Positions 28,120 to 61,272 of a DNA stretch of 64,000 nucleotides are shown piece by piece. Source of the DNA: an uncultured bacterium (GTDB lineage Bacteria; Hydrogenedentota; Hydrogenedentia; Hydrogenedentales; Hydrogenedentaceae). The notes beneath the pieces are model-generated. The model did not search any database. It had not been told where the DNA came from and saw nothing but the letters and a program-made list of their open reading frames with translations. The DNA is taken from contig CALLRP010000006.1 in assembly GCA_938014335.1 (NCBI GenBank), forward strand, positions 14,226-78,225, given 5' to 3'. The position numbers and the translations under genes are program-made. Numbering within the stretch: the stretch's first letter is position 1; every line of letters starts with the position of its first letter.

Positions 28120-28138
28120 AACATCATTATATTAAATT

Positions 28139-28324
28139 TTAACCTGCCCATGGAGAGGATTTCGTTTGAGAAAGGCCGAAATTGTTTTTGTTTTTTGGCA
28201 ATTTTTTTTTGTGTAATAACGGTATTGCATAAGTCTGCCGAACCAAGGATGGTTTTTTTATGCCATATTTGGCAACTACCACGGCCAGAATAGATGATAA
28301 AAATTTTCTCCGATTTATTGCCAT
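28139..28324 (-). CDS. Possible 61-aa ORF with a textbook twin-arginine (Tat) signal, lying between the AmmeMemoRadiSam rSAM and MEMO-AMMECR1 genes. It is a doubtful gene.
   Basis: The sequence MAINRRKFLSSILAVVVAKYG matches the S/T-RRxFLK consensus followed by a hydrophobic core. It overlaps the rSAM stop by 10 nt. It contains a homopolymer run (A9-10), so a frameshift artefact cannot be excluded. A competing ORF, 28116..28406, overlaps it in another frame. Confidence 0.3.
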   Translation of the reverse strand: MAINRRKFLSSILAVVVAKYGIKKPSLVRQTYAIPLLHKKKLPKNKNNFGLSQTKSSPWAG

Positions 28325-34557: not shown

Positions 34558-34585
34558 CATATAGATTTTGGAGGAAAAGTGAAAA

Positions 34586-35185
34586 ATGTTTGAACCTTTT
34601 TTAATTCGATGGCGAAGTTTCTATCATGGATTGAAATTTGCTCAAAAAGGCAAAAAATGTCGTATCCAAGGTAAGCATTTTACAATCGAGGGACATGTAG
34701 AATGCGGGGATTATTGTAGATTCCGTGATTATATAATACTCCGTACACATAAAAATGGAAAAATTATAATGGGGACGCACTCTGTTTTAAGTTATTATAC
34801 AATTTTAGAATCTACTACATTAATCCAGATTGGAAGTAACACTGCTGTGGCAGAGTTTACGGTAATTCGTGACACACATCATGTGTTTTGGGGAACCAAA
34901 GAACATTTTGCCCTAACTCCACATATTGCGAAACCGATCATAATAGGAGATAATGTCCTTATTGGTAGTCGCTGTTATATCCATCCGGGTGTAGAAATTG
35001 GAGATGGTGCGATAATCGGTGTAGGAAGTGTTCTTACTGAAGATACAAAAGTAGGACCTTTGGAGATCTGGGCAGGAGTCCCTGCAAGAAAAGTAGGACA
35101 TCGATTAGAAAATGTCCCACCTAAAAAATTACAACAAACAGAGGAGTTAATAAAACAATATGGAATACGCAAATTCCGATATTAA
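34586..35185 (+). CDS. Hexapeptide-repeat (LbH) acyl/acetyltransferase embedded in the efflux operon.
   Basis: Left-handed beta-helix repeats are present: IGDNVLIGSRCYIHPGVEIGDGAIIGVGSVLT. A GGAGG RBS is present. Confidence 0.8.
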   Translation: MFEPFLIRWRSFYHGLKFAQKGKKCRIQGKHFTIEGHVECGDYCRFRDYIILRTHKNGKIIMGTHSVLSYYTILESTTLIQIGSNTAVAEFTVIRDTHHVFWGTKEHFALTPHIAKPIIIGDNVLIGSRCYIHPGVEIGDGAIIGVGSVLTEDTKVGPLEIWAGVPARKVGHRLENVPPKKLQQTEELIKQYGIRKFRY

Positions 35186-46129: not shown

Positions 46130-46204
46130 GACAACCCTTATGTGGGTTGCGCACTCTTTTTAGATTATTCATCATTTCTCCATAAAATACATAAGGAAAA
46201 ATGT

Positions 46205-49200
46205 GTGAAGGGAAGACAAGTTAGGTGTGCTTTATTCTTTATTCTTCTCATTGCTATTATTTTAAGAGTATGGTATCTTTATGAAGTATATAAATATGCC
46301 CCTGATTATTCAGCACTCCAGCAGGACCCGGAAGTTCAAGATTATTTTGCTCGTGCCATTGTAACAGGTGATTGGAGTGTCCCTGAAGGGGTTACCGACC
46401 CCGAGATGCGAACAACCCCTTTTTTCCGTCCACCAGGGCATGGTTATTTTTTAAGTTTTCTGTATCGATTCATTTCGGACAGTTATCTAACACCACGAAT
46501 TGTTAATTCTATCGCTGGCATTTTAACCGTTCTATTAGCATTTTATCTGGGTCGGGCGATTTTCAATGAATATGTGGGATTAATATTCAGTTTTTTAGTG
46601 GCTACCTACAGTGTATTTATATATTGGGAGGGGGAAGTAAATGATCCATCTCTATTTGTCTTTTTTGTTGTTCTCATGTTTTATATTTTGTATCGTTGGA
46701 GTATATACAAAAAATGGTATGAGTGTATTCTTTTGGGCTTGGTAATAGGTGCTTATGCAACTATGAGACCAAACATACTTTCATTTGGTCCTTTTATAGC
46801 CTTATGGATGGCATGGATTGTATTTAAAGAAAAGAAATATTTTGCGTTTATTCCTTCCTGGATTGTTCTCCTTGTTTTTACCTTTGTTCCCATTATACCA
46901 ATCACAGTGAGAAATTATATTGCTTCAGGGGAATGGGTATTCATCTCGACTTATTTTGGTGAAAATTTATTTATAGGGAACAATCCGGAAGCCGATGGAA
47001 CAACCCCATGGAACCAATACTTACAGAAATTAGAAGGAACAGGCAACTGGACTGCTCGCGATTATGTGAATGTGGTAAAAGGGTTGGGTAAAGAATTAGG
47101 AATAAAAGACCTGAAACATGCAGATGCATCAAAAATATTTGCAGAAAAAGCACTGGAATATATCAAAACACATCCTAAAGAAACACTTATACAAGTTTTG
47201 AAAAAAGCAGTTCTTCTTTGGTGTCCTATTGAAATTACATGCAACAAAGTGGTGTATTATGAATTAAAACATTACTCTCCGTTAAAATATCTTCCTACTT
47301 TTCCATGGGCGGGTGGCCTTTTCATTACAGGGACAATTTTGCTTGTTTCTAATATAAAATCTATCTGGAAAAAGAAAAAAATTGTTCCGTTTCTTTTCTC
47401 CTCAAATGGGACATATTCTACAGAGTTATTATTATTAATATACTTGTTTATTGCTACCTATTTAGGTAGTTTTCTCATTTTCTTTGTGAATGGAAGGGCA
47501 CGAGTCCCTGTTATTCCTTTATTTTTTTTAATAGGAGCCAATTTCCTTTATTTTTTGTGGCTATGTATTAAAAACAAAAATCATGTATCTTTAGTAAACT
47601 GGTTATCAGTTCTTTTTATTAGTTTTATTGTAATATCTGTGAAATGGATTCCTTTTGAGCCTGATTTAGCTCGATGGCATTATCAACGAGCAGATTCTTA
47701 TTTAAGAAGAGGAGAAATCCAAAAGGCATTAGAAGAAGCACAAACATTGGTTTATATGCCACAAAGTTTACCTTATATGCATCATCGTTTGGGAAAAGAC
47801 CTATTTAAAGCAGGTTACTTTGTAGAAGCTAAAGAGCAGTTTGAAAAAGGTATTCGATTAGACCCTACTTATCAAGATATGTTTTATTATCTCGGTAAAA
47901 CCTATCTTGTAATGAAAGATGAGACAAAGGCAGAAGAATATTTTAGAAAAGCACTTGAATTAAATCCAAATGATGCCCGTTCTCACAATGAAATTGGGGA
48001 AATTCTTGAGCATCAGGGAAATTGGAAAGAGGCTCTTACTCATTACGAAAAAGCTTTACAAATAGTCCCAGATTTTACTTATGTTTTAGATAAATACGGT
48101 AGAATATTATCTTCACAAGGACGCTCTGAAGATGCGTTGGCTTTTTATAGAAAGGCTTTAGAGACAGACCCTTCCTATCAGGATGTATATTACCTTATTG
48201 GAAGAGAGTTAAGAAGTTTAGGGCGAATTGAAGAGGCGCAAGATACACTCCAAAAAGCGGTAGAATTAAATCCAAAGGATGCAAGGGCACTGTGTGAATT
48301 AGGAAATATTTGTGCAGATGAGGGGGATTGGGATAGTGCAGAGGCGTATTATCGCAAAGCTGTCTCTGCGGTACCTGATTTTGCTTATGCTTATGAACGA
48401 TTAGGAAGAATCTTATTTGCAAAAGATAATTTGAAAGAATCTGAAAAGAATTTAAAAAAAGCGATTGAGTTGAATCCTGAATATCAGGATGGTATTTATC
48501 TTTTAGGTTGTGTTCTGAAAAAGGAAGGACGATTGGAAGAGGCAGAAACATATTTTCGGAGGGCATTAGAATTAAATGTTCGCGATGCACGAGCTTGGAA
48601 TGAATTAGGCGAGATTATGGAAACGAAAAAAGATTATGAGCAAGCACTTAACTGTTATGAAAAAGCATTGGAGGCATATCCTCAATTTGCTTATGTTATT
48701 GCAAAAATGGGTGCAATTTATGCTAACAGGGGAGAATATGAAAAATCGTTGGAAAAACTCAAATTAGCTTTGAACATTGACCCCAATTTCCAGAATGTCT
48801 GTTATATGACAGGGCAGGTACTATCCCGAATGGGACAAAAAGAGGAAGCGAAAGTATACTTTAATAAAGCCATAGAGATGAACCCCGAAGATGCAAGAGC
48901 TCATAGGGAATTAGCCTTGTTAATACAAGAAGATAATCCTGAAAAGGCAATAGAGCATTTCAAAAAGGCATTGGAAATCGTGCCCGATTTCACATTGATA
49001 TTGAATAATTGGGGTAGTCTTCTGGTTAAACAAAATCGTTGGGATGAAGCAGAAAATAAATTTTATGAGGCGTTGAAAATAAGACCCCATGATGAATTAG
49101 CGTACTACAATCTGGCACAGTTAGCAGAGAAAAAAGGGAATACAGAACAGGCGATTGAACTGTATAAAAAGGCAATGGTGAACAGTCCTGATAATTCGTA

Positions 49201-49975
49201 TATTCCGTATGATTTAGGTGTTTTATACGACCGTATGGGTAAAACACAAGAAGCAGAAGCAATGTATTACAAAGCACTAGAAGTAGATGATAAAAATCCA
49301 TTGGCATATAACAATTTAGGTTATCATGCCTTTCTATCAGGAGAAATAGATAAAGCGATAGAACTCTACCAAAAATCCTTATCTATCAAACCTGATTTAA
49401 TAAATGCTCTTTACAATCTTGCAGATGCATTTTTTTCAAAAGAGGAGTTAGAAAAAGTTATTCCTTATTTTGAGAAAGCATTAGAGATTCAACCTAAAGA
49501 CCATAATCTCCATAACGCCTTAGGTTTTTATGCCCTTCAAGTAGGCAAATTCGATTTAGCAGAGAAACACTTAAAGGAAGCAGTAAATTTACAACATGAA
49601 TTCCCACTTGCATGGAAAAATTTAGGGGATTTATATAAAGTTCAAAAAAGATATAGTGAAGCAGAACAAGCGTACAAAAAGGCAATAGAAATTTATCCCA
49701 GTGACGGAGAAGGTTGGGCAAGATATGCTATATTAAAGAAGGAAAAGGGTGATTATCAGGAATCTTTAGAATTATTTCAAGAAGCTTTAAAAAGATTGAA
49801 AGAAAGAGAAAGTCCACCAGAGCTAATTACAGAAGTTTTATTTGAAATAGGAGAAATATACCTTAAATGGGGTGATCAGGAAAATGTGAAGAAAATAATT
49901 ACAGAAATTACAAGATTGAACCCTGAAAATGATGAGATAAAACAAAGAATGAAACAAAAGGGATTCCCTGAATAA
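46205..49975 (+). CDS. Giant membrane protein: an N-terminal GT-C glycosyltransferase (PMT/ArnT/GT39-83-like, TMTC-like architecture) fused to about 25 TPR repeats. The start is reassigned to the GTG at 46205 (AAGGAA RBS).
   Basis: The first 480 residues are polytopic TM with an early extracytoplasmic acidic loop (...VPEGVTDPEMRTTPFFRPPGHGY...). The remaining ~790 residues are tandem 34-aa TPRs (e.g. AKEQFEKGIRLDPTYQDMFYYLGKTYLVMKDETKAEEYFRKALELNPNDARSH...). Confidence 0.8.
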   Translation: MKGRQVRCALFFILLIAIILRVWYLYEVYKYAPDYSALQQDPEVQDYFARAIVTGDWSVPEGVTDPEMRTTPFFRPPGHGYFLSFLYRFISDSYLTPRIVNSIAGILTVLLAFYLGRAIFNEYVGLIFSFLVATYSVFIYWEGEVNDPSLFVFFVVLMFYILYRWSIYKKWYECILLGLVIGAYATMRPNILSFGPFIALWMAWIVFKEKKYFAFIPSWIVLLVFTFVPIIPITVRNYIASGEWVFISTYFGENLFIGNNPEADGTTPWNQYLQKLEGTGNWTARDYVNVVKGLGKELGIKDLKHADASKIFAEKALEYIKTHPKETLIQVLKKAVLLWCPIEITCNKVVYYELKHYSPLKYLPTFPWAGGLFITGTILLVSNIKSIWKKKKIVPFLFSSNGTYSTELLLLIYLFIATYLGSFLIFFVNGRARVPVIPLFFLIGANFLYFLWLCIKNKNHVSLVNWLSVLFISFIVISVKWIPFEPDLARWHYQRADSYLRRGEIQKALEEAQTLVYMPQSLPYMHHRLGKDLFKAGYFVEAKEQFEKGIRLDPTYQDMFYYLGKTYLVMKDETKAEEYFRKALELNPNDARSHNEIGEILEHQGNWKEALTHYEKALQIVPDFTYVLDKYGRILSSQGRSEDALAFYRKALETDPSYQDVYYLIGRELRSLGRIEEAQDTLQKAVELNPKDARALCELGNICADEGDWDSAEAYYRKAVSAVPDFAYAYERLGRILFAKDNLKESEKNLKKAIELNPEYQDGIYLLGCVLKKEGRLEEAETYFRRALELNVRDARAWNELGEIMETKKDYEQALNCYEKALEAYPQFAYVIAKMGAIYANRGEYEKSLEKLKLALNIDPNFQNVCYMTGQVLSRMGQKEEAKVYFNKAIEMNPEDARAHRELALLIQEDNPEKAIEHFKKALEIVPDFTLILNNWGSLLVKQNRWDEAENKFYEALKIRPHDELAYYNLAQLAEKKGNTEQAIELYKKAMVNSPDNSYIPYDLGVLYDRMGKTQEAEAMYYKALEVDDKNPLAYNNLGYHAFLSGEIDKAIELYQKSLSIKPDLINALYNLADAFFSKEELEKVIPYFEKALEIQPKDHNLHNALGFYALQVGKFDLAEKHLKEAVNLQHEFPLAWKNLGDLYKVQKRYSEAEQAYKKAIEIYPSDGEGWARYAILKKEKGDYQESLELFQEALKRLKERESPPELITEVLFEIGEIYLKWGDQENVKKIITEITRLNPENDEIKQRMKQKGFPE

Positions 49976-49985
49976 CCTAAATTTA

Positions 49986-51182
49986 CTATTCAACGAGCTT
50001 ATTTAGATGATTACATACATATTTAACAGTATCTTCGGAAATTCCATCATAGAAAGGTAGGGCAAGCAATCGTGGATAAACATTATTTGCATTGGGACAG
50101 TTTGAATTTTCTATAAATACGGATACATTATCAATTACTTCTTCCCTCAATGCCGTATCAATTCCTCTAAAAAGAAGAGAACGACACATGTTTCGAGAAT
50201 CCATAGGGAGAATAACTACAAACATGTAATAAGATGGAGTACAATCGGGATGTACATAGGGAATATCAATTCTATCTGATAGAAATTTTCGATATAAACC
50301 GGCTATTTCATTCCGGTGCTCTACTCGTGAAGTAAGAAAGGGTAACTTTTCGATACCAATACTTGCTTGAAGAGGAGTAAACCGAATATTTTCAGGTGGA
50401 ACACTCTGAATCTTACGATATATAAACTCAAGTGATTTAAAAAAGAAAGGGAACAATCTAAAGAAAAGTATAGGATACATTAATCGTGAATTATAAAGAG
50501 TTTGTTCTAATTTTATCGATTTCGCTTTTTTAGTTATCTCCTTTGTGGTTAAAATTAATTTTTGGTTGTATTCCCCTACAAAATCAATAAGGGATGAATC
50601 CTTACTTACCAACATCCCCCCGCCATAAGTATTAATGGGTTTGGATATATCAAAACTAAAGAACCCCGCATATCCGAATGTCCCAGCATGCTGATTATTA
50701 ATTTTAGCCCCACATGCATGAGCGGTGTCTTCTATTACGGGAATATTATGTTCTTGTCCTATTTTACATAATTCTTCGATGTAGCAAGGATTTCCAAAAG
50801 TATGTAACGCGATAATGGCTTTGGTCTTTGAAGTTATAGAGTCTTGAACCAATTCAGGGTCAATATTTAATGTTTTGGGATTTATATCCACACAGATAGG
50901 TTTTAATCCCAATGACTGGATGATATTTACAAGTGCCTTTAATGTGAACGAAGGAATGATTACCTCATCATTCTTATGAAGCTTTAAATGTTGCAAAATG
51001 AGTTTGAGAGCCATCCGCCCCGATGGGAGAGCCACTGTGTATGGAGAGCCCAAAAAATCGCCAAACTCCCTTTCCCATCGAGAAACAATCCTATCATTGG
51101 ATAGTAAATCCAGAGAGGGATTTAGAACTTCTTTATATTCAGCAGGTAAAATATGTATCCATCTTCGTGGTATCATATACAC
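49986..51182 (-). CDS. DegT/DnrJ/EryC1/StrS-family PLP-dependent sugar aminotransferase.
   Basis: The conserved core is ...AIIALHTFGNPCYIEELCKIGQEHNIPVIEDTAHACGAKINNQHAGTFGYAGFFSFDISKPINTYGGGMLV (with the PLP-lysine region). It is 398 aa. Confidence 0.88.
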   Translation of the reverse strand: MYMIPRRWIHILPAEYKEVLNPSLDLLSNDRIVSRWEREFGDFLGSPYTVALPSGRMALKLILQHLKLHKNDEVIIPSFTLKALVNIIQSLGLKPICVDINPKTLNIDPELVQDSITSKTKAIIALHTFGNPCYIEELCKIGQEHNIPVIEDTAHACGAKINNQHAGTFGYAGFFSFDISKPINTYGGGMLVSKDSSLIDFVGEYNQKLILTTKEITKKAKSIKLEQTLYNSRLMYPILFFRLFPFFFKSLEFIYRKIQSVPPENIRFTPLQASIGIEKLPFLTSRVEHRNEIAGLYRKFLSDRIDIPYVHPDCTPSYYMFVVILPMDSRNMCRSLLFRGIDTALREEVIDNVSVFIENSNCPNANNVYPRLLALPFYDGISEDTVKYVCNHLNKLVE

Positions 51183-51205
51183 TCCAACTCTTAAAAGATA
51201 TAGTA

Positions 51206-52138
51206 ATGATTAATTTTATAAAAAGCAAAGACAAAATATTAAATGTTCTTCATATATCTGGTTTTGTCATTTTGATATTATTAACCTGTTTTGGAGTATA
51301 TCAGATACGAGAAGAAAATTTTGAAAATATAAAACATGTAATTGTAAATAGATGGGAACTATTCTTTTTAGCGTGTGTATTACGATTATTTGACTGGATT
51401 TTAGACTACTATTTGTGGCGATGTATGTTTAAAAATTTTTCTATCTCTTTCCCTTTTATAAAATCTATTTGGGTCTATCTCACTCAGGGTGCTGGAATTG
51501 TATTGCCGGCACAATTAGGCAGAGCATTAAGAGGATATATAATCACAAAAACAGTGAGCACACCCATCTCAAAAGCCATGACTGCGGAATTTTTGTTTTT
51601 ATTATGTGTTTTGGAAGGAGCATTTTTAGTTTTAATACTCTCATTAGCTATTTATACCAACACATTTGTATTGCCAATAATCCTTTCATTACTTTCATTA
51701 TTACTCTTCCCCTTTTTATTAAAATTCTTTAAACCTTTTCTGGCAAAGTTAAAAATAGGATTAACGGACAATGTAATTCGTCCTCCTTTTTTGATTTTAT
51801 TCTGCATAGGCTGTTCTATTGGGTGGGCAGTTAATGGCTTAATATTTTATCTTTTATTGGGAGGGAAAGAATCGGGACTATATTTAAGTCAAGTTGAAAT
51901 GATTGTTTTAGGAAACTTATTTTTAGCAATATGTAGTGGGATTCCTGGCGGAGTGGGAATTGTAGAAGCAACTATGAGTGTTTCATTACATTGGCTTCAG
52001 GTTCAATTACCCGAAATAATCCTTGTTATAGGGTTGTTCCGTATAATAACATTCTGGATTTGGATACCTTTAGGTTGGCTGGGTTTATTCCGTTTAAAAT
52101 TATATAAAAGTGTGGATTTAAAAGTAGATGTAGAATGA
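51206..52138 (+). CDS. Polytopic membrane protein of the flippase-like / lysylphosphatidylglycerol-synthase-TM (UPF0104-like) type. The start is reassigned to the ATG at 51206.
   Basis: It has about 8 TM helices and no soluble domain. It is first in the operon and is coupled to the next gene by an ATGA overlap. Confidence 0.55.
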   Translation: MINFIKSKDKILNVLHISGFVILILLTCFGVYQIREENFENIKHVIVNRWELFFLACVLRLFDWILDYYLWRCMFKNFSISFPFIKSIWVYLTQGAGIVLPAQLGRALRGYIITKTVSTPISKAMTAEFLFLLCVLEGAFLVLILSLAIYTNTFVLPIILSLLSLLLFPFLLKFFKPFLAKLKIGLTDNVIRPPFLILFCIGCSIGWAVNGLIFYLLLGGKESGLYLSQVEMIVLGNLFLAICSGIPGGVGIVEATMSVSLHWLQVQLPEIILVIGLFRIITFWIWIPLGWLGLFRLKLYKSVDLKVDVE

Positions 52139-53130
52139 AACAGAAAATAAAAAGTATTCCAATACTGTTGAAATCATGGGTAAAAACAAAAATTTTAGGA
52201 ATAAATGCGCCTTTATTTGTTGAGTGGAACCTAACTTTCCGATGCCCATATCAGTGCCTTTATTGTGGCTCTCGGGAAGTGACTGTTAATGAGTTAGATA
52301 CAAATGAAATATTGGAGCGGTTGAATATTTTACAAAAAATAGGTGTTAGATGGATTACCTTTGGTGGGGGAGAACCTTTAATTAAAAAAGACATAATAAA
52401 AATTCTTGAACATGCGAAATCGTTAGGGCTGAATGTTTTTTTAAGTTCCACAGGTGTCAATATAGAAAAGTACAATGGAATTGAAAAGTATGTTGACCAT
52501 ATAAATCTGAGTTTTGATGGGCCACAAGAAATACATGATAAAATTAGGGGTGAGAGGACTTATAATCGGTTATTTCAAGTAGTTGATTTTTGCAAGTCGA
52601 AGAATATTTCGGTGTCCTTTTTATGTGTTATATCCAAGTTAAATATTAATAAATTAGACTATGTTTTAGATAAGGCTAAAGAAGAAAATATAAAGGTAAT
52701 GTTTCAGCCAGCAACTTTACATTTAGATTCCTCTTTAACTCCAAATCCAATTGCTCCTGATAAAGACACATATGATAATGCGCTACAATATATTATGAAC
52801 AAGAAAAAACAAGGCTACCCTGTTCGTAATTCATTTGCAGGGTTAGAATATCTTAGGAACTGGCCGAACCCGTCAAGAATATGGTGTTCTGCTGGAAGAT
52901 TAACATGTACTATTGAACCGGATGGTACAATACTTTCCTGTCATTTATTTGAAACTCGTGAACTATATAAAAAGAAAGAAAACAAAGGAGATAATGAAGA
53001 ATTTGAAAAGATAATAAATCAGTTAAAAGTACCAAAAGGTTGCTCTACTTGCTGGTGTGCCCCTGTTGTTGAACTTGCTTTAATATGGAATTTAAATCCT
53101 TCTGCTATATGGAATGCACTCGGGATATAA
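52135..53130 (+). CDS. Radical SAM / SPASM-domain protein.
   Basis: The cluster motif is CPYQCLYC, with GGGEPLI after it. C-terminal auxiliary-cluster cysteines are present: CSAGRLTCTIEPDGTILSCH...GCSTCWCAP. Confidence 0.8.
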   Translation: MKQKIKSIPILLKSWVKTKILGINAPLFVEWNLTFRCPYQCLYCGSREVTVNELDTNEILERLNILQKIGVRWITFGGGEPLIKKDIIKILEHAKSLGLNVFLSSTGVNIEKYNGIEKYVDHINLSFDGPQEIHDKIRGERTYNRLFQVVDFCKSKNISVSFLCVISKLNINKLDYVLDKAKEENIKVMFQPATLHLDSSLTPNPIAPDKDTYDNALQYIMNKKKQGYPVRNSFAGLEYLRNWPNPSRIWCSAGRLTCTIEPDGTILSCHLFETRELYKKKENKGDNEEFEKIINQLKVPKGCSTCWCAPVVELALIWNLNPSAIWNALGI

Positions 53131-53158
53131 AATGGTTTCTTTTTAGGATTAATTATTA

Positions 53159-54910
53159 ATGATAATATTAGGAATTAGTGAAGACTTTTTTGATGCAGGG
53201 GTTACCCTTTGTGATGATGAGTGGATATTATTCATGTCGAACGAGGAGCGATATACCCGCCAAAAAAATGAAGGTGGATTTCCACATTTATCATTAGAAA
53301 ATGCATTAAAACAAACAGGAATAACATGGAAAGATATACAGGCAGTATGTGTTTCTGGTTTTGTAACACCCTTCCCTTTTTTCCGATTATTTCCTAATTT
53401 ACAGAAAAAAGCATTTTGTTCAAAGAGAAAGAAAAATCAGAGTGACAAAAAATCGAACTACTGGGATAACATTACAGAATGGGCAGTCTCATATAATCCC
53501 ATAAGTTATATGAATCCTTCAGAGACGATGAAAAAAAGTTTATCTGTTATTTTAAGAAAAATAATACGAAAAAGATTACCCTTTCTTAATTCTGATGTTC
53601 CTATTCATTTCATCGAACACCATGAAGCCCATGCATGGGGAAGTTATTTCTGTTCTGGTTTTGATGAGGCACTTATTGTTACTGCAGATGGAATGGGGGA
53701 TGGCTTATCGTTGACTATTTCGAAAGGAGAAGGGAACTCGATAACCCGATTATGGAAATCCTCTGCTAAGAGTTCTTTTGGATTATTTTTTGAGAATCTG
53801 GCGGAAGTGTTAGGATTTGTCCCTTGTAGAGATGAAGGGAAACTTACAGGTTTATCAGCTCATGGAGATGCAAATAGAATTCAGTATGAAAATCCATTTT
53901 CATGGAATAATGATGTCCTCTTATACAAAGGACCCTACGGCAAAAAATTAAGAGAATGGCTTCTACAGTTATTACATGAATATTCGCGAGAAGACCTTTG
54001 TGCCTGGTCACAAAATATTTTAGAACAAATGCTATGTTCTTTAATTGAATATTGGTTAGATAGAACAGGGCTTAAAAAAATTGCTGTGGCTGGGGGAGTT
54101 TTTGCGAATGTGCTGTTAAACCAGAAAATACACGAATTGGAAAAGGTCGAAGAACTCTTTGTGTATCCGAATATGGGTGATGGAGGGTTGAGTTTAGGGG
54201 CTATCAGTGCACAACTCCGTTTTTATCCAAAACCTCTTCCGCATGCTTTCTGGGGGGATGGTTTTAGTAAAAAAGAAATAACGGGTGCAATTTCTAAATA
54301 TAAACTTCCATTTAAAGAATTCGATGAACAGGAAATACCCCAACTTGTTGCAAAGTGTTTGTATAACAAGAGAATTATTGCAAGATTTCATGGTAAAATG
54401 GAATGGGGACCTCGTGCTTTGGGAAATCGTTCTATTTTGTGTGATTCTACCATGAAAGATGTAACAGAAAAATTGAATAATATGTTAAAACGAAGTGATT
54501 TCATGCCGTTTGCACCTGCTTTATTAGATGAGGATGCAGGGCAATTTTTGATAGGATATGAAAAGGCAAGGCATGCAGGTGAATTTATGACATGCTGTTT
54601 TCAGAGTACTCCTAAAATGAAAGACCAACACGGTGCAGTTGTTCATATTGATGGAACAACACGAGCCCAACTTGTAAAAAAAGAGAATAACCCAACCTTT
54701 TATGAAATTTTAAAGGAATATAAAAAACTTTCAGGAACAAGTGTGGTTTTAAATACAAGTTTTAATATGCATGAATCGCCAATAATACGAACTCCTGAAG
54801 AAGCCTTACAAACATTTAAAGAGACTGATGTAGATTTTCTATTTTTAGAAAACTTTGTTATAGCAAAAACTCCGGATTTATGGAATGACTTTAGACAAAA
54901 TAGCAAATAA
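53159..54910 (+). CDS. NodU/CmcH-family carbamoyltransferase.
   Basis: The N-terminus, MIILGISEDFFDAGVTLCDD, is a Kae1/HypF-like ASKHA fold. A middle ...HHEAHAWGSYF... His motif and a C-terminal carbamoyl-phosphate-binding domain are present. It is 583 aa. Confidence 0.88.
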   Translation: MIILGISEDFFDAGVTLCDDEWILFMSNEERYTRQKNEGGFPHLSLENALKQTGITWKDIQAVCVSGFVTPFPFFRLFPNLQKKAFCSKRKKNQSDKKSNYWDNITEWAVSYNPISYMNPSETMKKSLSVILRKIIRKRLPFLNSDVPIHFIEHHEAHAWGSYFCSGFDEALIVTADGMGDGLSLTISKGEGNSITRLWKSSAKSSFGLFFENLAEVLGFVPCRDEGKLTGLSAHGDANRIQYENPFSWNNDVLLYKGPYGKKLREWLLQLLHEYSREDLCAWSQNILEQMLCSLIEYWLDRTGLKKIAVAGGVFANVLLNQKIHELEKVEELFVYPNMGDGGLSLGAISAQLRFYPKPLPHAFWGDGFSKKEITGAISKYKLPFKEFDEQEIPQLVAKCLYNKRIIARFHGKMEWGPRALGNRSILCDSTMKDVTEKLNNMLKRSDFMPFAPALLDEDAGQFLIGYEKARHAGEFMTCCFQSTPKMKDQHGAVVHIDGTTRAQLVKKENNPTFYEILKEYKKLSGTSVVLNTSFNMHESPIIRTPEEALQTFKETDVDFLFLENFVIAKTPDLWNDFRQNSK

Positions 54911-55559
54911 TAAAAATGAAAGATTAAAAATTGCCATTATTGATTATTCCGCAGGGAATATCCATTCTGTATATCGTGCTTTTTCGAAGACAGGTGTCAT
55001 GATTGAGGTTATAAATAAGGAAACGGAGTTAGACCTATTTGATGCGGTTGTTTTGCCAGGGGTAGGTGCCTGTGCCAGTGCTATGGACTTTTTATCAAAG
55101 GTAGGACTTATAAAGAGATTAAACCACTATGTTTTAGAATTGAAAAAGCCTATTTTAGGGATTTGTTTAGGTTTTCAAATAATGGCAGAATTTAGTGAGG
55201 AAGGCGAAGCAAAAGGATTAGGTTGGATACCGGGACATGTCCGTTATATACGGAATGTTGTTCAAAATTTCATTCGCGTTCCACATATTGGCTGGAATGA
55301 TGTGAAAACTTACAAAGGAAGTTTATCTCTTCTGTCAGGGATGATAGATAATCCTAATTTTTATTTTGCTCATTCATACTTTATCCCAGCCAATAAAATC
55401 GAAGGAAACATTGGAATAACCGAATATGGAACGCCCTTTATTTCTTTATATCAAAATAAAAATATTTACGGCACTCAATTTCATCCCGAAAAAAGTTATA
55501 TTGGTGGTGCTATCTTAATCCAAAATTTTTTAAATGAGGTATGTAATGCTAAAAGTTAG
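54885..55559 (+). CDS. HisH-like glutamine amidotransferase subunit. In this context it is a WbuY-type partner of the sugar amidotransferase, not a histidine-biosynthesis gene.
   Basis: The triad signature is GICLGFQIM...HSYF..FHPEKS. It lies between the carbamoyltransferase and the HisF-like/WbuX genes. No other his genes are present in the window. Confidence 0.8.
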   Translation: MTLDKIANNKNERLKIAIIDYSAGNIHSVYRAFSKTGVMIEVINKETELDLFDAVVLPGVGACASAMDFLSKVGLIKRLNHYVLELKKPILGICLGFQIMAEFSEEGEAKGLGWIPGHVRYIRNVVQNFIRVPHIGWNDVKTYKGSLSLLSGMIDNPNFYFAHSYFIPANKIEGNIGITEYGTPFISLYQNKNIYGTQFHPEKSYIGGAILIQNFLNEVCNAKS

Positions 55560-56364
55560 AGTAATACCGGTATTATTACTAAGACATTGGGGTCTGGAGA
55601 AGACCATCCAATTTACAAATCCTAAATATGTGGGGTGTCCAATTAATGCGGCTCGAGTTTTTAACCAGCATAATGTGGATGAACTTATATTGCTTGACAT
55701 AGTCGCGACACTTGAAAATCGTCCTCCGGAAATTGATGTTGTGAGGCAAATATCCGCAGAGACTTCAATGCCCTTCACAGTAGGAGGAGGAATTCGGGAT
55801 GTAGGCATTATACGAGAGTTATTAAAAGCGGGGGCAGATAAAGTAGTTTTAAATACCTCCGTTGTTGAAGTCCCCGGTTTGTTGGAAAAATCCGCAGAAC
55901 AATTTGGGCGACAATGTATTGTAGTATCCATAGATGTGAAAAAAGTTAATGGGACTTATGAGGTATTTACGCATGGAGGGAGGAAACCCGCAGGATTAAA
56001 CCCTGTAGAGTTGGCAATGAAGGCAGAGAAAGAAGGAGCCGGGGAAATATTAATTACAAGTATAGATAGAGATGGAACGCTCGAAGGTTATGACTTAGAT
56101 TTAATAAAAATGATTACAGAATCAGTTCAGATTCCTGTTATTGCTTGTGGTGGGGCTGGTTCTGTAAAAAATTTAGCAGATGCATACTATAAATCAGGGG
56201 CTTCTGCTGTAGCGTGTGGTGCATTTTTTCTCTTTTATGGTACTCGAAGGACAGTACTAATAACTTACCCATCCGAAGAACAATTGTTAGAGTATTTTGA
56301 GCCTCAACATGTTCGAAAAAGAGATCCCAAGAAACCTATTGATTTAGAATTAGCACGGTTATAA
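55546..56364 (+). CDS. HisF-like cyclase/ammonia-channel subunit (WbuZ-type). The start is moved to the ATG at 55546 (GAGG RBS).
   Basis: TIM-barrel HisF motifs are present: ...RVIPVLLL..., DELILLDI, GGGIRD and ITSIDRDGTLEGYDL. Confidence 0.8.
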   Translation: MLKVRVIPVLLLRHWGLEKTIQFTNPKYVGCPINAARVFNQHNVDELILLDIVATLENRPPEIDVVRQISAETSMPFTVGGGIRDVGIIRELLKAGADKVVLNTSVVEVPGLLEKSAEQFGRQCIVVSIDVKKVNGTYEVFTHGGRKPAGLNPVELAMKAEKEGAGEILITSIDRDGTLEGYDLDLIKMITESVQIPVIACGGAGSVKNLADAYYKSGASAVACGAFFLFYGTRRTVLITYPSEEQLLEYFEPQHVRKRDPKKPIDLELARL

Positions 56365-56381
56365 CGGATATAGGTGGTGTT

Positions 56382-57533
56382 ATGATTCAGCAAAATGAAG
56401 AAAAAGTTTTATGTAAACGGTGTGTGATGGATACTTCTATTCCAGGCGTTCGTTTAGACAAACAGGGAATATGTAACTTTTGCCACATGCATAATAATTT
56501 AGATAAACGATTCCCTGTGGGAGAAGAAGGAGCAAAAATATTACAAAAGATTGCTAATAAAATAAGAAAAGATGGCAAAGGGAAAAGATACGATTGTGTC
56601 GTTGGAGTAAGTGGGGGAAGAGATACATCTTATTGTTTATATTATGTGAAAGAAGTTATGAATCTACGTCCTCTGGCTGTTCATTTTGACAACGGTTGGG
56701 ATTCCGAAATTGCAAAGAGTAATCTTGCTAAATTATGTGATAAATTAGATGTAGAATTGCACACGATAATTATGGACTGGCCTGAATCCCGCGAACTAAC
56801 AAATGCAACTATTAGAGCATGTGTACCTTATATAGACTTAACGGACGATATCGGAATTGCGAGTAGTTTATACCGAACCGCTGTCGAAGAAAATGTCCGC
56901 TATATCATTCTAAGTCATTCTTTTCGTGAAGAAGGGATAACCCCACTGAAATGGAATTACATAGATGGAAAATATACCCGTGCTATTGTAGACCAGTTTT
57001 GTACAATTCCATTAATACATTTTGAGAATGTAGAACTCTGGGATATGATTTACTGGATATTGTGGAGGGGAATTCGTGTAATTAATATAACAAATTATTA
57101 TGACGATACAGGGGAAAAAATAGAGACATTTCTTAAAGAAAAGTTTGATTGGCAGGATACAGGACAACACCATTTGGATAATGAATTATTTACATTAGTT
57201 TATTATTATGCAAGAAGAAAATTTGGTTTCGATTGGCGCGTAGTTGAATTATCCGCAAAAGTTAGAACCGGTGTAATTTCTCGAGAGTCTGCTTTGAAAG
57301 CGTTACAAGAAATTCCTTTTTTTGAGGATGAAGAAAGGATAGAACATTGTTTAAGAAAACAAGGTATAAGTCGAGAAGAATTTGAGATGATAGTTAAATC
57401 ACCCAATAAATATTTTACAGATTATCCGTCTTACTATCCCTTGCTACGAAAGTTTAAATGGTTTATATGGATTTTATGTAAACTTCATGCTATACCAGCA
57501 CATACTTATGAAAAATATTTTCATGCTATCTGA
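56382..57533 (+). CDS. PP-loop N-acetyl-sugar amidotransferase (WbuX/WbpG/PseA-like) that forms an acetamidino group.
   Basis: N-terminal Cys pairs form a zinc ribbon (CKRCVMD...CNFCHMH). The PP-loop is VVGVSGGRDTSY. It is 383 aa. Confidence 0.82.
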   Translation: MIQQNEEKVLCKRCVMDTSIPGVRLDKQGICNFCHMHNNLDKRFPVGEEGAKILQKIANKIRKDGKGKRYDCVVGVSGGRDTSYCLYYVKEVMNLRPLAVHFDNGWDSEIAKSNLAKLCDKLDVELHTIIMDWPESRELTNATIRACVPYIDLTDDIGIASSLYRTAVEENVRYIILSHSFREEGITPLKWNYIDGKYTRAIVDQFCTIPLIHFENVELWDMIYWILWRGIRVINITNYYDDTGEKIETFLKEKFDWQDTGQHHLDNELFTLVYYYARRKFGFDWRVVELSAKVRTGVISRESALKALQEIPFFEDEERIEHCLRKQGISREEFEMIVKSPNKYFTDYPSYYPLLRKFKWFIWILCKLHAIPAHTYEKYFHAI

Positions 57534-57583
57534 AATTAAACTTAAATCGGTATATAATTTTATTTTAATTAGGTATACGGTAA

Positions 57584-59023
57584 ATGAAGAAAAAAAGATT
57601 ATTTTTAGTTAATCTGGGTTTGAGAAGACCACTATATCCATTAGCCACTCCTCCGATGGGGCTTTTGTATCTTTCGGCGTATCTACGCCGTGAATTGAAA
57701 GACATTGAAATAGGTATAATAAACCAGAGGTTGGAAAATTGTAATATTGAAGAATTATGTGAAAGAATCAAGACTTTTGAACCCGACATTATTGGTATAT
57801 CTACTTTTACCACTTTTGCTTATTTACTTCCTTTGTTAGTCCCAATGCTTCGAAGTGCTTGTCCCAAAGCATGGATTATTGTTGGAGGACCCCATGCTTC
57901 AGCTGTGCGTAAAGGTGTATTTGATGATGTAGATATAGATATTTTAGTGCCAGGTGAGGGCGAAATTGCTTTAAAACAAATAATAGAAAGTTTTCCAGAA
58001 AGGGAATCGTTACAAAATATAAACGGGATTTACTGGAAAGATAAATCAGGAGAGGTAATTCAGAACCCAGGATTATTGCCTATGATTGAGAATTTAGATG
58101 AATTGCCTTTTCCCGCTTATGATTTAATTGATTTGCCCCGTTATTGGAAACATCAGTCTATTGCCCCTATAGTAAGAAGGAAATATGCCTCACTTGTAAG
58201 TAGTCGGGGGTGTCCTTATCAATGTATGTGGTGTCATTCTATTTTTGGAAGACGAATCCGAATGCATTCTGCTGAACGAGTTGTAGATGAAATCGAATAT
58301 TTGGGAAAAGAATACAATATCACCGATTTTGAGTTTTTAGATGATAACTTTAATTTTAACTCGAAGCGAGTAATAGAGATTGCAGAACTTATTCATAAAC
58401 GAGGCTTAAAAACAGAAATTGCTTTTCCCACCGCAATTCGAGGAGATTTAGCAACTCAGGAAGTTATAGATGCGATGCATTCTATAGGTACATATCTTTG
58501 TGGCTACTCATTAGAGACAGGGTCTCCTCGGCTACAAAAATTTACCTGTAAAAGACTGGATATTCCCAAATTTTTAAATGCGGTAGAAATGACAGCCAAA
58601 AAGAACATCTACATTACAGGTTTCTGTATGATGGGATTTCCTACTGAGACCGAAGAAGAACTACAACAAACTATAGATGTAGCATGTAAATCTCGTTTTC
58701 ATACCGCTAGTTTCTTTACAGTAACCCCATTCCCCGGAACCCCTCTCTTTGAATGGGTAAAAGAAAATCGTCCTGAAAAATTATCACAATTGAATTATAA
58801 CAACATGGATTTCTCAGCAATGAATGTAAATTTAACAGACTTGCCTGACGAAGTCCTTTTTGCCTATCAGCGTAAAGCTATGAAAAAGTTTTATACCGAC
58901 CCCATTCGTATTTATCGACTATTGAGAAGTTATCCCAAACCCCTGCTATTGCCCTATTATCTCCCCATCTTTATCCATCGAGCCACCAAAGGACTATGGA
59001 AATCTCAAACAATTAATTGTTAA
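57584..59023 (+). CDS. B12-binding-domain radical SAM protein (class-B-like).
   Basis: The N-terminal B12-binding fold is ...DIIGISTF...AWIIVGGPHAS. The radical-SAM motif is SSRGCPYQCMWC. It is 479 aa, and its stop overlaps the start of the downstream GT-C gene. Confidence 0.85.
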   Translation: MKKKRLFLVNLGLRRPLYPLATPPMGLLYLSAYLRRELKDIEIGIINQRLENCNIEELCERIKTFEPDIIGISTFTTFAYLLPLLVPMLRSACPKAWIIVGGPHASAVRKGVFDDVDIDILVPGEGEIALKQIIESFPERESLQNINGIYWKDKSGEVIQNPGLLPMIENLDELPFPAYDLIDLPRYWKHQSIAPIVRRKYASLVSSRGCPYQCMWCHSIFGRRIRMHSAERVVDEIEYLGKEYNITDFEFLDDNFNFNSKRVIEIAELIHKRGLKTEIAFPTAIRGDLATQEVIDAMHSIGTYLCGYSLETGSPRLQKFTCKRLDIPKFLNAVEMTAKKNIYITGFCMMGFPTETEEELQQTIDVACKSRFHTASFFTVTPFPGTPLFEWVKENRPEKLSQLNYNNMDFSAMNVNLTDLPDEVLFAYQRKAMKKFYTDPIRIYRLLRSYPKPLLLPYYLPIFIHRATKGLWKSQTINC

Positions 59024-61272
59024 ACTGTGAATGGTATCCTTATAAGATTATAATTCTTAAACAGGGCTTTTTGGTGGGAAACAATAAAGAAAAAAAATAT
59101 AATATTCAAGTCTTATTGAGTTGTTTCCTTATCATTTTATTAGCTTTCATCATCCGAATTTACAAAATTTCCGATGAATCGATATGGTGGGATGAGTATT
59201 CCAGTCTGGCTCACATAAATGCAGACTCTTTATCAGAGTTCCTTTTTTTAAATCCTCTTTATGACCCCGCCACCATGCCAGCCTATTATATTATAGAATA
59301 CCTTTTCTGGCACTATATATCTCCTTCTGTTTTAGGTTTGCGGTTCTTTTCTGTCTTATTGAGTATAATGACCATCCCTATTTTATTTCTCATCGGTAGA
59401 AAATTAGGTTCCTATAAAATAGGATTAATAGCGGGTCTATTTTTCGCTCTCTCACCGATACATCGTTTTTTTGGACAGGGGATACGAATGTATGTTTTAT
59501 TAACTTTACTTTTTACTTTGTCAGTATATTATTTACTTTCATATCTCGAAGAGAACAAAAAGAAAAACGGGATTATTCTGACTATAGTAAACTTTATCCT
59601 TTTGTGGACTCATCCCTTTGCAATTCTGATTATTGGTATAGAAATGTTTTGTTTTCTCATTGCTCATAAAGTAAGAGGATATAAAAAATATATCTTGTTT
59701 TTTTCTCAAACAATTATAAGTATCCCTCCTTTATTTTATATGTTGAATATAAAATATTATTCAACAGAGAAATCTTTCTGGTTCAAAATACCAAGTCTAT
59801 ATGAGTTTATTGGGGATTTATTTGCTGATGATGCGGTAGGTTTGACATATCAGGTACGAATTATTAATGAAATTATCCCTGATTATTTGAGAACAATACA
59901 TCCTTTTATGGACTTATCTTTATTAGTCATAAATGTTGGAATAATTCTATTTAGTTTAGGGTATGTTTTGAAAAACCTAAAAGATGAAAACGAATTAAAG
60001 GGCAAAATCACTTTTCTTATTTTGATGTTTTTAATCCCACCTATGTTTTTATATGTCATTTCAATTCTATGGAGGCCTTGTATATTCCCAAGATACACAC
60101 TTTATAGTAGTCTCGCTATATATTTGCTTTATGGATGTTTTATACATATAATAAATAATAAATATCTAAAAAAATCAATATTATTTTTGTTAATAGCTAT
60201 TTTTGGTTATCAGTTATTTATTACAATTCCGTTACCTCAACGTACAAATTGGCAAGAAACTTCTCGTTTTATTGAACAATCCTTTCCACCAGAGGGAGAG
60301 AAATCCCCCGTGTTTGTATATCAAGCCATTAATAAAGATGTTTTTTCTTTTAATTTAAAAGATAAAACAATCCCTGTTTCCTTTGTAGAAAAAGTTGATA
60401 CTCTTATCCCTATTTTTCAAGAACTGTTTCAAAAGGATACCAATTGTTTTTGTTCTGAAGTATGGTTTGTGCATGTTTCTTTCTATTTTGCTGAATACGG
60501 CTCTCCGGAGTTAGAACGATTGTTGGACGAGAATAAAATGGCTTATAAATATTACGACTTCTACGGAATAGAACCTATTCGATTATACAGAATTACACCT
60601 ATGGAAGGTGTTGCATATCCTAATTTGAATCTGAAAGCCTTATCTGATGAGATGTTGAAATTTACAATTTCGGATTTAGCCCTTTCTTATGTTGAGACTG
60701 GGTATAAAGAATGTGCGATATATTTACTTGAAAAATTAATGAATGACCCTCTCCAAAGATTACAGTATAAAAATTTATATAATGCACAAAAAAATGATAA
60801 GAATGTCTACAATCTTGCAAATGCCTTACGGTATTACCAGATAAGCCAGAGAAGTATAGACCCAAAGTATAAGGAATACTTCTTAAATAAGGCTATTGAA
60901 CGGGATGCAGATTTGAAACTGGCTTATTTATGTTTTGACGCGATTATGACTTCAATAGAAGGAGATATCAATACCACTCATGAAAAACTTTACCGTATTA
61001 TTGACATGGCTCCTGACCTTGCTCTTCCAAGAATTGCTCTGGGAGTGATTGCCTTATCGCAGAACAGGGAAGAAGATGCCAAAAAATGGCTTTATTCCGC
61101 TATAGAGTGTGAAAAGGGACATTACAAAAGTTGGGAAAATCTATTAAATTTCATTTTTATAGAGAAAAATTACTCCAAGGCATTGGAAGAATATCATGCC
61201 CTTCAAGATAAAGGTATATTTGTAGAAACTTATTTTGAAGAATACTTAACCGAAAAGATACAAAATAAATAA
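59017..61272 (+). CDS. GT-C glycosyltransferase (PMT/ArnT, GT39/83-like) with a C-terminal TPR-like helical domain (751 aa).
   Basis: TM1 is followed by the ...ISDESIWWDEYSS acidic DE motif typical of ArnT/PMT first-loop catalytic residues. It has about 11 TM helices and then helical-repeat sequence. Confidence 0.8.
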   Translation: MLNCEWYPYKIIILKQGFLVGNNKEKKYNIQVLLSCFLIILLAFIIRIYKISDESIWWDEYSSLAHINADSLSEFLFLNPLYDPATMPAYYIIEYLFWHYISPSVLGLRFFSVLLSIMTIPILFLIGRKLGSYKIGLIAGLFFALSPIHRFFGQGIRMYVLLTLLFTLSVYYLLSYLEENKKKNGIILTIVNFILLWTHPFAILIIGIEMFCFLIAHKVRGYKKYILFFSQTIISIPPLFYMLNIKYYSTEKSFWFKIPSLYEFIGDLFADDAVGLTYQVRIINEIIPDYLRTIHPFMDLSLLVINVGIILFSLGYVLKNLKDENELKGKITFLILMFLIPPMFLYVISILWRPCIFPRYTLYSSLAIYLLYGCFIHIINNKYLKKSILFLLIAIFGYQLFITIPLPQRTNWQETSRFIEQSFPPEGEKSPVFVYQAINKDVFSFNLKDKTIPVSFVEKVDTLIPIFQELFQKDTNCFCSEVWFVHVSFYFAEYGSPELERLLDENKMAYKYYDFYGIEPIRLYRITPMEGVAYPNLNLKALSDEMLKFTISDLALSYVETGYKECAIYLLEKLMNDPLQRLQYKNLYNAQKNDKNVYNLANALRYYQISQRSIDPKYKEYFLNKAIERDADLKLAYLCFDAIMTSIEGDINTTHEKLYRIIDMAPDLALPRIALGVIALSQNREEDAKKWLYSAIECEKGHYKSWENLLNFIFIEKNYSKALEEYHALQDKGIFVETYFEEYLTEKIQNK

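Follow-up and report, generated by a model that had tools for sequence, protein, structure and literature searches.

The 64,000-nt stretch analyzed here, which we call the window (positions 14,226 to 78,225 of contig CALLRP010000006.1, from an uncultured member of the Hydrogenedentota), encodes two different radical S-adenosylmethionine (SAM) enzymes among a set of sugar-modification genes. One is a 331-residue protein with a truncated-SPASM or Twitch-like C-terminal domain (52135..53130, + strand), designated rSAM1, and the other is a 479-residue class B enzyme with a B12-binding domain (57584..59023, + strand), designated B12-rSAM. From the sequence comparisons described below, we put at about even the chance that this locus is an envelope glycan or glycolipid modification system whose two radical SAM enzymes modify a sugar that is most probably attached to a lipid on the membrane's cytoplasmic side. 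The initial annotation had reported both reading frames and had placed them in a glycan rather than a peptide context; we recovered both at exactly the coordinates it gave, and the glycan setting was borne out.

By gene content the two enzymes fall into separable modules, one consisting of an LPG_synthase_TM membrane protein, rSAM1 and a carbamoyltransferase, the other of B12-rSAM and a GT-C membrane glycosyltransferase. The neighborhoods of homologs elsewhere, which the initial annotation had proposed as a check, showed rSAM1 recurring with carbamoyltransferase and DegT aminotransferase genes and B12-rSAM orthologs recurring with GT-C genes. Members of the rSAM1 family are also fused to DegT proteins in both orders (P0281, DegT-rSAM1, 737 residues, 32% identity to the window DegT with an E-value of 5e-60; P0321, rSAM1-DegT, 734 residues, 33% identity with an E-value of 8e-67; both by BLASTP), and a third protein, P0356, joins a B12-rSAM to an rSAM1 (831 residues; BLASTP E-value 2e-16 against the window proteins). 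These fusions are the strongest evidence, at the level of sequence, that rSAM1 and the aminotransferase would act consecutively and that both radical SAM enzymes would serve one pathway. All three are natural, ready-made constructs for the proposed coupling, and the DegT fusions in particular provide a directly testable hypothesis, that of an oxygen- and nicotinamide adenine dinucleotide (NAD)-independent route to amino sugars.

rSAM1 and its conserved partners

The rSAM1 protein contains FRCPYQCLYCGS, in which the CX3CX2C motif comprises C37, C41 and C44 (nt 52243-52266), and it matched Pfam Radical_SAM PF04055 with an E-value of 7e-22 (78.7 bits, cutoff 29.5). The initial annotation had described this protein as a SPASM-type enzyme with the motif CPYQCLYC; the radical SAM half of that description stands, and the SPASM half gives way to a truncated, Twitch-like domain that scores below the SPASM cutoff. 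We took as SPASM a seven-cysteine pattern CX9-15GX4C-gap-CX2CX5CX3C-gap-C with a match to PF13186 or TIGR04085. The C-terminus of rSAM1 (C251-x12-G-x4-C269 ... C303-x2-C306-x-C308, nt 52885-53058) holds only the CX12GX4C and CX2CXC portions of this pattern; Pfam SPASM PF13186 gave no match to it, and the NCBIfam SPASM model TIGR04085 scored 25.0 bits (cutoff 27), its match covering only profile positions 1-68 of 93. A Twitch domain was taken to be an abbreviated C-terminal beta-hairpin/helix domain with three to four cysteine ligands and a single auxiliary cluster. Because the SPASM motif is partial, a Twitch-like domain with one predicted auxiliary cluster fits rSAM1 better than a SPASM domain with two, and both its cysteine pattern and its length match Twitch. 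Among 59 rSAM1-family members C251, C269, C303 and C306 were invariant or nearly so (giving a spacing of CX17C...CX2C), C308 was present in 50, and C258 was variable; the CX3CX2C motifs are invariant in the families of both radical SAM enzymes.

An AlphaFold model of rSAM1 (pLDDT 93.4) showed the expected fold. Its best Foldseek match was BlsE, about equal to PqqE, SuiB, MoaA, SkfB, viperin and anSME, and of these neighbors BlsE, MoaA and SkfB are Twitch enzymes. No NCBIfam model was approached, the best score being 93 bits (cutoff 381). Sulfatase genes appeared twice among the neighbors of rSAM1 relatives and we considered an anSME-like role; we dropped it because rSAM1 lacks a full SPASM domain and its conserved partners are a carbamoyltransferase and a flippase-like protein.

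An exhaustive profile search found the rSAM1 family to comprise 3920 representative clusters at E-values of 1e-30 or less, and we collected 79 genome loci for rSAM1 relatives, in addition to individual look-ups. Greedy open reading frame (ORF) calling fails in high-GC loci (L020-L027, L048), so the adjacency counts given here are lower bounds, and they were cross-checked by tblastn. The taxon labels of some 'binchicken' metagenome-assembled genome (MAG) loci (Nitrospirales, Pirellulaceae) look unreliable, and for this reason loci were grouped by protein similarity. Orthologs were defined by 40-80% identity in Hydrogenedentota-type loci. In at least 14 of the 24 ortholog loci (17 by tblastn) a carbamoyltransferase gene lies directly downstream of rSAM1, and in 12 of the 24 an LPG_synthase_TM gene lies directly upstream; among the other ortholog loci several contigs are incomplete. 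The paralogs of Omnitrophota, Planctomycetia and Elusimicrobia are arranged differently, in long one-directional arrays that alternate with DegT genes and distant B12-rSAMs. A DegT gene is immediately adjacent to 12 of the 48 rSAM1-family genes outside Hydrogenedentota, with arrays of the DegT-R1-DegT-R1 type (R1 being the rSAM1-family gene) in L038, L043, L044 and L045, and across phyla the paralogs also neighbor GT2 (9/86), LPG_synthase_TM, PMT_2 and DUF2079 genes. One Omnitrophica WOR_2 locus (L042:5102-12004) has five rSAM1-family genes almost in a row, following three B12-rSAMs. Pairs of SPASM and B12-type radical SAM genes in archaea (L058, L066, L073, L080-L085) were set aside as AhbD/NirJ-like plus HpnJ/BchE-like enzymes unrelated to the system at this locus.

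In the window the DegT gene, encoding a DegT/DnrJ/EryC1-family pyridoxal phosphate-dependent sugar aminotransferase (49986..51182, - strand; Pfam PF01041, 230 bits), precedes the rSAM1 module. It had been assigned to one operon with the two radical SAM genes and the carbamoyltransferase and amidotransferase genes. This holds for the carbamoyltransferase and amidotransferase genes but not for DegT, which is on the opposite strand, divergently transcribed and on a separate transcript; despite the opposite strand, its adjacency is kept in relatives (L009-L012 and L032). Among proteins of solved structure, the window DegT is closest to scyllo-inosose and 2-deoxy-scyllo-inosose aminotransferases (including BtrR, 2c7t), QdtB and WbpE. 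It differs from solved DegT chains by a hydrophobic insertion of ~40 residues (within residues ~200-264, LMYPILFFRLFPFFFKSLEFIY, with an aromatic 'YP' segment LMYPILFFRLFPFFF), since residues 200-264 correspond to only ~22 residues in those chains. Omnitrophota and Planctomycetia DegTs that are linked to rSAM1 share this 'YP' segment (L017, L034, L036, L037, L038, L044, L045), and we suggest that the insertion may be a membrane anchor.

The LPG_synthase_TM protein (51206..52138, + strand) is a polytopic membrane protein of the MprF-flippase-like UPF0104 type, matching Pfam PF03706 at 63.8 bits (cutoff 33.4) over residues 82-351, and its stop codon overlaps the rSAM1 start codon (ATGA). The ORF called mechanically, 51023-52138 (+), shares 160 nt with the 5' end of the divergent DegT gene; the true start is probably M62 of that ORF, at nt 51206. 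As this start leaves only ~23 bp between the two genes, the divergent promoters of DegT and LPG_synthase_TM would lie inside coding sequence. Downstream of rSAM1, the gene at 53159..54910 (+) encodes a NodU/CmcH/TobZ-type carbamoyltransferase with a Kae1-like N-terminal and a YrdC-like C-terminal domain (Pfam Carbam_trans_C 192 bits, Carbam_trans_N 102 bits).

The B12-rSAM family and its GT-C partners

The B12-rSAM protein contains SRGCPYQCMWCHS, with its CX3CX2C motif at C210, C214 and C217 (nt 58211-58234). The B12-binding fold with CPYQCMWC that had been reported at this position was confirmed both by Pfam (B12-binding PF02310, 51.4 bits, cutoff 32.1, residues 22-133; Radical_SAM, 63.7 bits, cutoff 29.5, residues 205-365) and by an AlphaFold model with a pLDDT of 94.4. 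The B12-like Rossmann domain spans nt 57647-57982 and the radical SAM core nt 58196-58678. The model matched MgmA, OxsB, CysS, TokK and TsrM with TM scores of 0.65-0.71; MgmA ranked first (9ccb, E-value 3.7e-24) and OxsB and AprD4 took ranks 2-7, and the best solved relative by sequence was AprD4 (6fd2, E-value 8e-18). Scores were below every curated cutoff tested (ApyD, the Sden_1168/PhpK P-methylases, BchE, HpnJ, HpnR, MgmA, AprD4, KedN5), the best NCBIfam scores and their cutoffs being 161.7/750 (ApyD), 141/575, 139/481, 129/578, 100/360 and 76/500. Orthologs and paralogs likewise reached no curated NCBIfam cutoff, the best matches for Omnitrophota paralogs being the HpnJ and BchE models, and because no curated cutoff is reached we assign B12-rSAM to a family of its own, which has more than 3000 members.

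We collected 80 metagenome loci for B12-rSAM, plus individual look-ups, and defined orthologs as proteins scoring at least 600 bits on the family profile (43-80% mutual identity in pairwise comparison). A large polytopic membrane protein is encoded within two genes of 17 of 29 orthologs, compared with 19 of 119 distant B12-rSAMs (Fisher p 8e-6), and PMT_2 is the commonest neighbor family of the orthologs (11/52). The partner GT-Cs are of the PMT_2 type, often with tetratricopeptide repeats (TPR), or of the YfhO type. Translational coupling of such pairs is frequent. In Phycisphaerae-type loci (L005, L006, L008) the called B12-rSAM and PMT_2 genes overlap by 14-20 nt and the arrangement is repeated in tandem. 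Orthologous and paralogous comparisons showed that such pairs are duplicated as units and that the GT-C diverges much faster; a mirror-tree comparison of the two gave a Spearman correlation of 0.59, which is inflated by shared phylogeny and for that reason is taken as support for co-duplication only.

In the window the partner is a PMT_2-type GT-C with C-terminal TPR (59017..61272, + strand; 751 residues as an ORF, although the public gene call starts at ~59074). It has eight hydrophobic segments, a borderline PMT_2 score (25.0-25.8 bits, cutoff 26.1) and orthologs in L010 (56% identity) and L012 (40%), and L012, a close relative, has both B12-rSAM and the GT-C. In Candidatus Hydrogenedens sp. 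KM4344-31 (L009:15428-16245), also a close relative, B12-rSAM is a frameshifted N-terminal remnant (residues 3-176) joined directly to a GT-C remnant (residues 26-129), with the rest of the operon intact; the loss took both genes at once. One locus (L097:353-10113) carries five to six consecutive B12-rSAM genes.

A second PMT_2-type GT-C of 1277 residues with a long C-terminal TPR array is encoded upstream of DegT (46142..49975, + strand). Its N-terminal 553 residues match Pfam PMT_2 at 37.9 bits (cutoff 26.1), it has many TPR matches, and the gene is kept upstream of DegT in L009, L010, L012 and L032.

A proposed pathway and its alternatives

We propose that rSAM1 oxidizes a sugar hydroxyl to a ketone and that DegT aminates the product. 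The radical SAM cluster of rSAM1 would abstract a hydrogen from a sugar C-H and its single Twitch-type auxiliary cluster would accept the second electron, converting a secondary alcohol to a ketone that the membrane-associated DegT would turn into an amine, by the same logic as the BtrN and BtrR steps that make butirosin. We favor this dehydrogenase role because DegT needs a keto-sugar, because Pfam and NCBIfam scans of the window proteins found no short-chain dehydrogenase/reductase or NAD-dependent oxidoreductase in the operon, and because the pairing of a Twitch enzyme with a DegT recalls BtrN and BtrR. The carbamoyltransferase and the WbuX-, HisH- and HisF2-type proteins encoded downstream would then add carbamoyl and acetamidino groups, the LPG_synthase_TM protein would be a candidate flippase, and the GT-Cs would transfer the flipped sugar outside the cell. 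In the second module B12-rSAM would perform one conserved reaction preparing the donor for its neighboring GT-C; cobalamin-dependent C-methylation is our prior expectation for this reaction, and ring rearrangement or dehydration are the alternatives. The initial annotation had suggested C-methylation or dehydrogenation of the sugar. For rSAM1, dehydrogenation gains from the DegT adjacency and the DegT-rSAM1 fusions, whereas C-methylation by B12-rSAM stays at the level of a prior, no curated cutoff having been reached and AprD4, OxsB, HpnJ and BchE, which do not methylate, being among its nearest relatives.

The flippase-like partner, the GT-Cs, the GT2 genes in related loci and the window and the conserved hydrophobic insertion of DegT together suggest that the substrate is a lipid-linked sugar and not a free nucleotide sugar, and there are radical SAM precedents for lipid-linked sugars in HpnJ and calditol synthase (PMC13459092). 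The window encodes a GT2 protein at 13318-14307 (- strand) that scored 194 bits against PgfS and 127 bits against ArnC, both below cutoff; it may supply the GT-Cs 38 kb away with lipid-linked donors.

The closest functional parallel is BtrN with BtrR/BtrS, which form 2-deoxystreptamine for butirosin. Shared with the window system are a radical SAM core with a four-cysteine auxiliary cluster (CX~17-18C...CX2C, predicted for rSAM1), a DegT-family aminotransferase partner (for rSAM1 by adjacency and gene fusion), the place of BtrR among the window DegT's closest relatives of solved structure, and an oxygen-independent conversion of C-OH to C-NH2, the first step of which would be the proposed rSAM1 dehydrogenase activity. 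The differences are that rSAM1 has no meaningful sequence relationship to BtrN and is ~80 residues longer, that the window DegT has its hydrophobic insertion, and that BtrN belongs to an antibiotic cluster whereas rSAM1 is found in an envelope glycan/GT-C setting of uncultured anaerobes. BlsE, HygY and NeoN share the fold class of rSAM1 and act on carbohydrates, but they are only 15-20% identical to it and have different partners. B12-rSAM shares its N-terminal B12-type Rossmann domain and radical SAM barrel with GenK/GenD1 and Fom3 (methylases), AprD4 (a dehydratase) and HpnJ, for which a ring contraction of hopanoid-linked glucosamine has been proposed; its family is set apart from these class B sugar enzymes by the recurrent pairing with PMT_2 or YfhO GT-Cs. 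Arn and similar GT2-flippase-GT-C systems resemble the locus in having a DegT-type aminotransferase (the window DegT scored 137 bits with the ArnB model), GT-Cs and a candidate flippase, and in the GT2 genes of related loci, the PgfS/ArnC-like GT2 of the window being outside the operon. In the Arn pathway, however, oxidation is by the NAD+-dependent ArnA and the flippase is ArnE/F or GtrA, where this locus would use a radical SAM enzyme and has an MprF-type candidate (LPG_synthase_TM, PF03706); the locus further differs in its carbamoyl and acetamidino tailoring genes and its TPR-bearing GT-Cs.

Several observations weigh against this pathway. By profile comparison rSAM1 matched BtrN (4m7t) with an E-value of just 0.006 (18.5 bits) over core residues 27-114 only, BtrN was absent from the Foldseek top 50 for rSAM1, and the best sequence matches in the Protein Data Bank (PDB) were RiPP (peptide made on the ribosome and modified after translation) or cofactor maturases (SkfB, CteB, PqqE). 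Cys164, on strand beta5 of the rSAM1 core, is conserved in Hydrogenedentota orthologs, but most paralogs from Omnitrophota and Planctomycetia have T, A or V at this position; it might donate a hydrogen, as a cysteine does in Twitch epimerases, or it might be irrelevant. Many Hydrogenedentota loci with rSAM1 and a carbamoyltransferase have no DegT within 10 kb (L001, L014, L016, L023-L027), so amination may not be a universal follow-up step. No GT2 polyprenyl-phosphate sugar synthase is encoded in the operon (the closest one lies 38 kb away), and we know of no demonstration that an LPG_synthase_TM protein is a sugar-lipid flippase. As for the second module, L010 has retained the GT-C but lacks B12-rSAM, only ~60% of B12-rSAM orthologs have an adjacent GT-C (~40% do not), tandem B12-rSAM arrays without a GT-C exist (L097, L096), and the PMT_2 score of the 751-residue protein is near threshold. 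AprD4 has a B12-type fold without cobalamin, so that cobalamin binding cannot be read from the sequence of B12-rSAM. More generally, all of the functional assignments are drawn from gene context.

A different chemistry, which we consider fairly unlikely, is that B12-rSAM does not methylate and instead rearranges, ring-contracts or dehydrates a lipid-linked sugar, possibly without cobalamin. AprD4, its best solved relative by sequence, is a diol dehydratase whose substrate is an aminoglycoside sugar, OxsB and AprD4 follow directly in the fold ranking, and HpnJ and BchE, the best models for the Omnitrophota paralogs, are also among the best NCBIfam matches of the window enzyme (129-139 bits). 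The HpnJ gene set includes a GT2, and the proposed HpnJ substrate is a lipid-linked glucosamine (PMC13459092). Weighing on the other side, most characterized class B enzymes are methylases, as is the top fold match MgmA, the top NCBIfam matches ApyD and Sden_1168 are peptide-modifying and P-methylating, respectively, and the cutoff is met for no family. We also note, in favor of this alternative, that the HpnJ gene set presumably includes HpnL, an LPG_synthase_TM-like protein.

An alternative for rSAM1, which we think unlikely, is that it is a Twitch sugar enzyme of another kind, an epimerase like HygY and NeoN or a decarboxylase like BlsE, whose product passes to the carbamoyltransferase. HygY and NeoN are epimerases that use a cysteine as hydrogen donor, and BlsE is a decarboxylase converting a glucuronide to a pentopyranoside. 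BlsE was the top structural match (7vob, E-value 4e-13, TM score 0.62) and was among the best sequence matches (1.5e-19), but the Foldseek scores of BlsE, PqqE, SuiB and MoaA are practically tied. The tightest partner of rSAM1 in Hydrogenedentota is the carbamoyltransferase and not DegT, and the Hydrogenedentota orthologs carry C308 and the additional, nearly invariant Cys164; Cys164, however, is independent of neighbor type, and we rejected it as a marker of dehydrogenases versus epimerases after finding that it does not separate DegT-linked from carbamoyltransferase-linked paralogs. The DegT fusions in both orders and the alternating DegT/rSAM1 arrays are most simply explained by production of a keto-sugar.

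It seems improbable that B12-rSAM instead C-methylates a secreted protein acceptor in the cytoplasm, in the manner of MgmA and Mmp10, which modify methyl-coenzyme M reductase, and that the TPR-bearing, PMT-like GT-C then O-glycosylates this protein. The best fold match is indeed MgmA, the best NCBIfam match is the RiPP enzyme ApyD, and many partner GT-Cs have TPR, as do TMTC-type protein O-mannosyltransferases. Against this, the B12-rSAM/GT-C pairs have no conserved candidate substrate gene beside them, several of the partner GT-Cs have no detectable TPR (L005, L006, L012), B12-rSAM directly follows sugar-tailoring genes in the window, and P0356 fuses a B12-rSAM to an rSAM1, a family itself fused elsewhere to a sugar aminotransferase.

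We regard it as very improbable that either enzyme, or both, is a maturase of RiPPs or cofactors (SkfB-, CteB-, PqqE- or ApyD-like) placed among sugar genes by chance: the top PDB sequence matches of rSAM1 are SkfB (1.5e-28), CteB and PqqE and the best NCBIfam match of B12-rSAM is ApyD, but scores were far below the cutoffs for these peptide-modifying families (PqqE 93 vs 381, SkfB 51.5 vs 300, ApyD 161.7 vs 750), rSAM1 lacks the ~100-residue N-terminal peptide-recognition domain of SkfB and CteB (its core begins at residue ~25 and the alignment at their residues 100-107), no free-standing small ORF that might encode a precursor was found in or beside the operon (whose intergenic stretches measure 28, 17 and 50 bp, the small ORFs all overlapping large genes), the neighbor families conserved across the collected loci are the carbamoyltransferase, the flippase-like protein, DegT and GT-C and never include a precursor, protease or transporter set, and DegT fusions exist. 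The initial annotation had named a peptide-modifying clade together with a nearby precursor gene as what would overturn its glycan assignment, and neither was found.

The kinds of enzyme in the proposed pathway are known; their families, partners and envelope-glycan setting are new, and our literature searches found no paper on the B12-rSAM/GT-C pairing or on the association of a radical SAM enzyme with DegT and a carbamoyltransferase. To our knowledge, nearly all examples of sugars tailored by radical SAM enzymes belong to antibiotic pathways (BtrN, GenK, AprD4, DesII, BlsE), the others being two lipid head-group cases, HpnJ and calditol synthase. Here two large families without a curated model occur in major uncultured anaerobic phyla, in loci for envelope glycans. 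We tentatively entertain, with more doubt than confidence, the broader idea that in Hydrogenedentota, Omnitrophota and Planctomycetota a radical SAM toolkit replaces NAD-dependent dehydrogenases and dehydratases and builds aminated, carbamoylated and possibly C-branched sugars on lipid carriers or head groups. If true, the toolkit would consist of a Twitch dehydrogenase fused to or paired with a membrane-anchored DegT, and a B12-domain enzyme associated one-to-one with a GT-C. The latter pair would be a self-contained module that makes a donor and then transfers it to envelope glycans or glycoproteins, a new and widespread two-gene glycosylation unit, and it would be the first case in which primary assembly of cell-envelope glycans uses radical SAM chemistry. 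The recurrent pair also provides a handle on what the very numerous orphan PMT_2 glycosyltransferases of Planctomycetota, Hydrogenedentota and their relatives do. Confirmation would bring new enzymology, a wider catalog of bacterial surface sugars and better annotation of thousands of 'radical SAM protein' entries.

Other genes of the locus and the window

The window has a GC content of ~35%, and its proteins are 80-100% identical to those of Candidatus Hydrogenedens and Hydrogenedentes MAGs. The region from 51.2 to 61.3 kb consists of eight tightly packed + strand genes, neighbors either overlapping by 4-26 nt or lying no more than 50 bp apart. A promoter and terminator scan returned fewer sites than were found in shuffled sequences and was uninformative on operon boundaries.

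Between the carbamoyltransferase and B12-rSAM are the three contiguous components of a WbuX/WbuY/WbuZ acetamidino-sugar system (54885-57533), all on the + strand and each above its NCBIfam cutoff: a WbuY-like HisH-type glutamine amidotransferase (54885..55559; TIGR01855, 197.6 bits, cutoff 105.4), a WbuZ-like AglZ/HisF2 acetamidino-modification protein (55534..56364; NF038364, 322.4 bits, cutoff 310) and a PP-loop N-acetyl-sugar amidotransferase of the WbuX family (56382..57533; TIGR03573, 224.6 bits, cutoff 203.2). Because all three exceed these cutoffs, 'sugar-tailoring operon', the label used in the initial annotation, is a fair one. The likeness to known systems of this type (AglXYZ, PseA, WbpG) extends to all three proteins, in order; unlike this locus, those systems are not known to include carbamoyltransferases, GT-C transferases or enzymes of the radical SAM type among their associated proteins.

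Elsewhere in the window there is another adjacent pair of uncharacterized radical SAM genes, both on the + strand. The first (1760-3892) encodes 710 residues with weak likeness to B12-type enzymes (PhpK 73 bits, HpnJ 64 bits), and the second (3896-4684), 4 nt downstream, encodes a small radical SAM protein of 262 residues; a DUF6786 gene (390-1619, - strand) adjoins the pair. An AmmeMemoRadiSam system occupies 26554-29292 on the - strand, in which the radical SAM enzyme (28315-29292; TIGR04337, 377.6 bits, cutoff 220) stands beside a single Memo-AMMECR1 fusion protein (26554-28119). The gene at 22994-26557 (- strand) encodes 1187 residues with weakly NosR/NapH/RnfG-like C-terminal regions, which suggest a membrane flavin mononucleotide/Fe-S electron-transfer module. 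An RND efflux operon at 29999-36707 (+ strand) encodes an HlyD-like adaptor, an AcrB-type pump and an OEP outer-membrane factor; the genes for the last two are separated by an inserted one for a hexapeptide-repeat acyltransferase (34586-35185).

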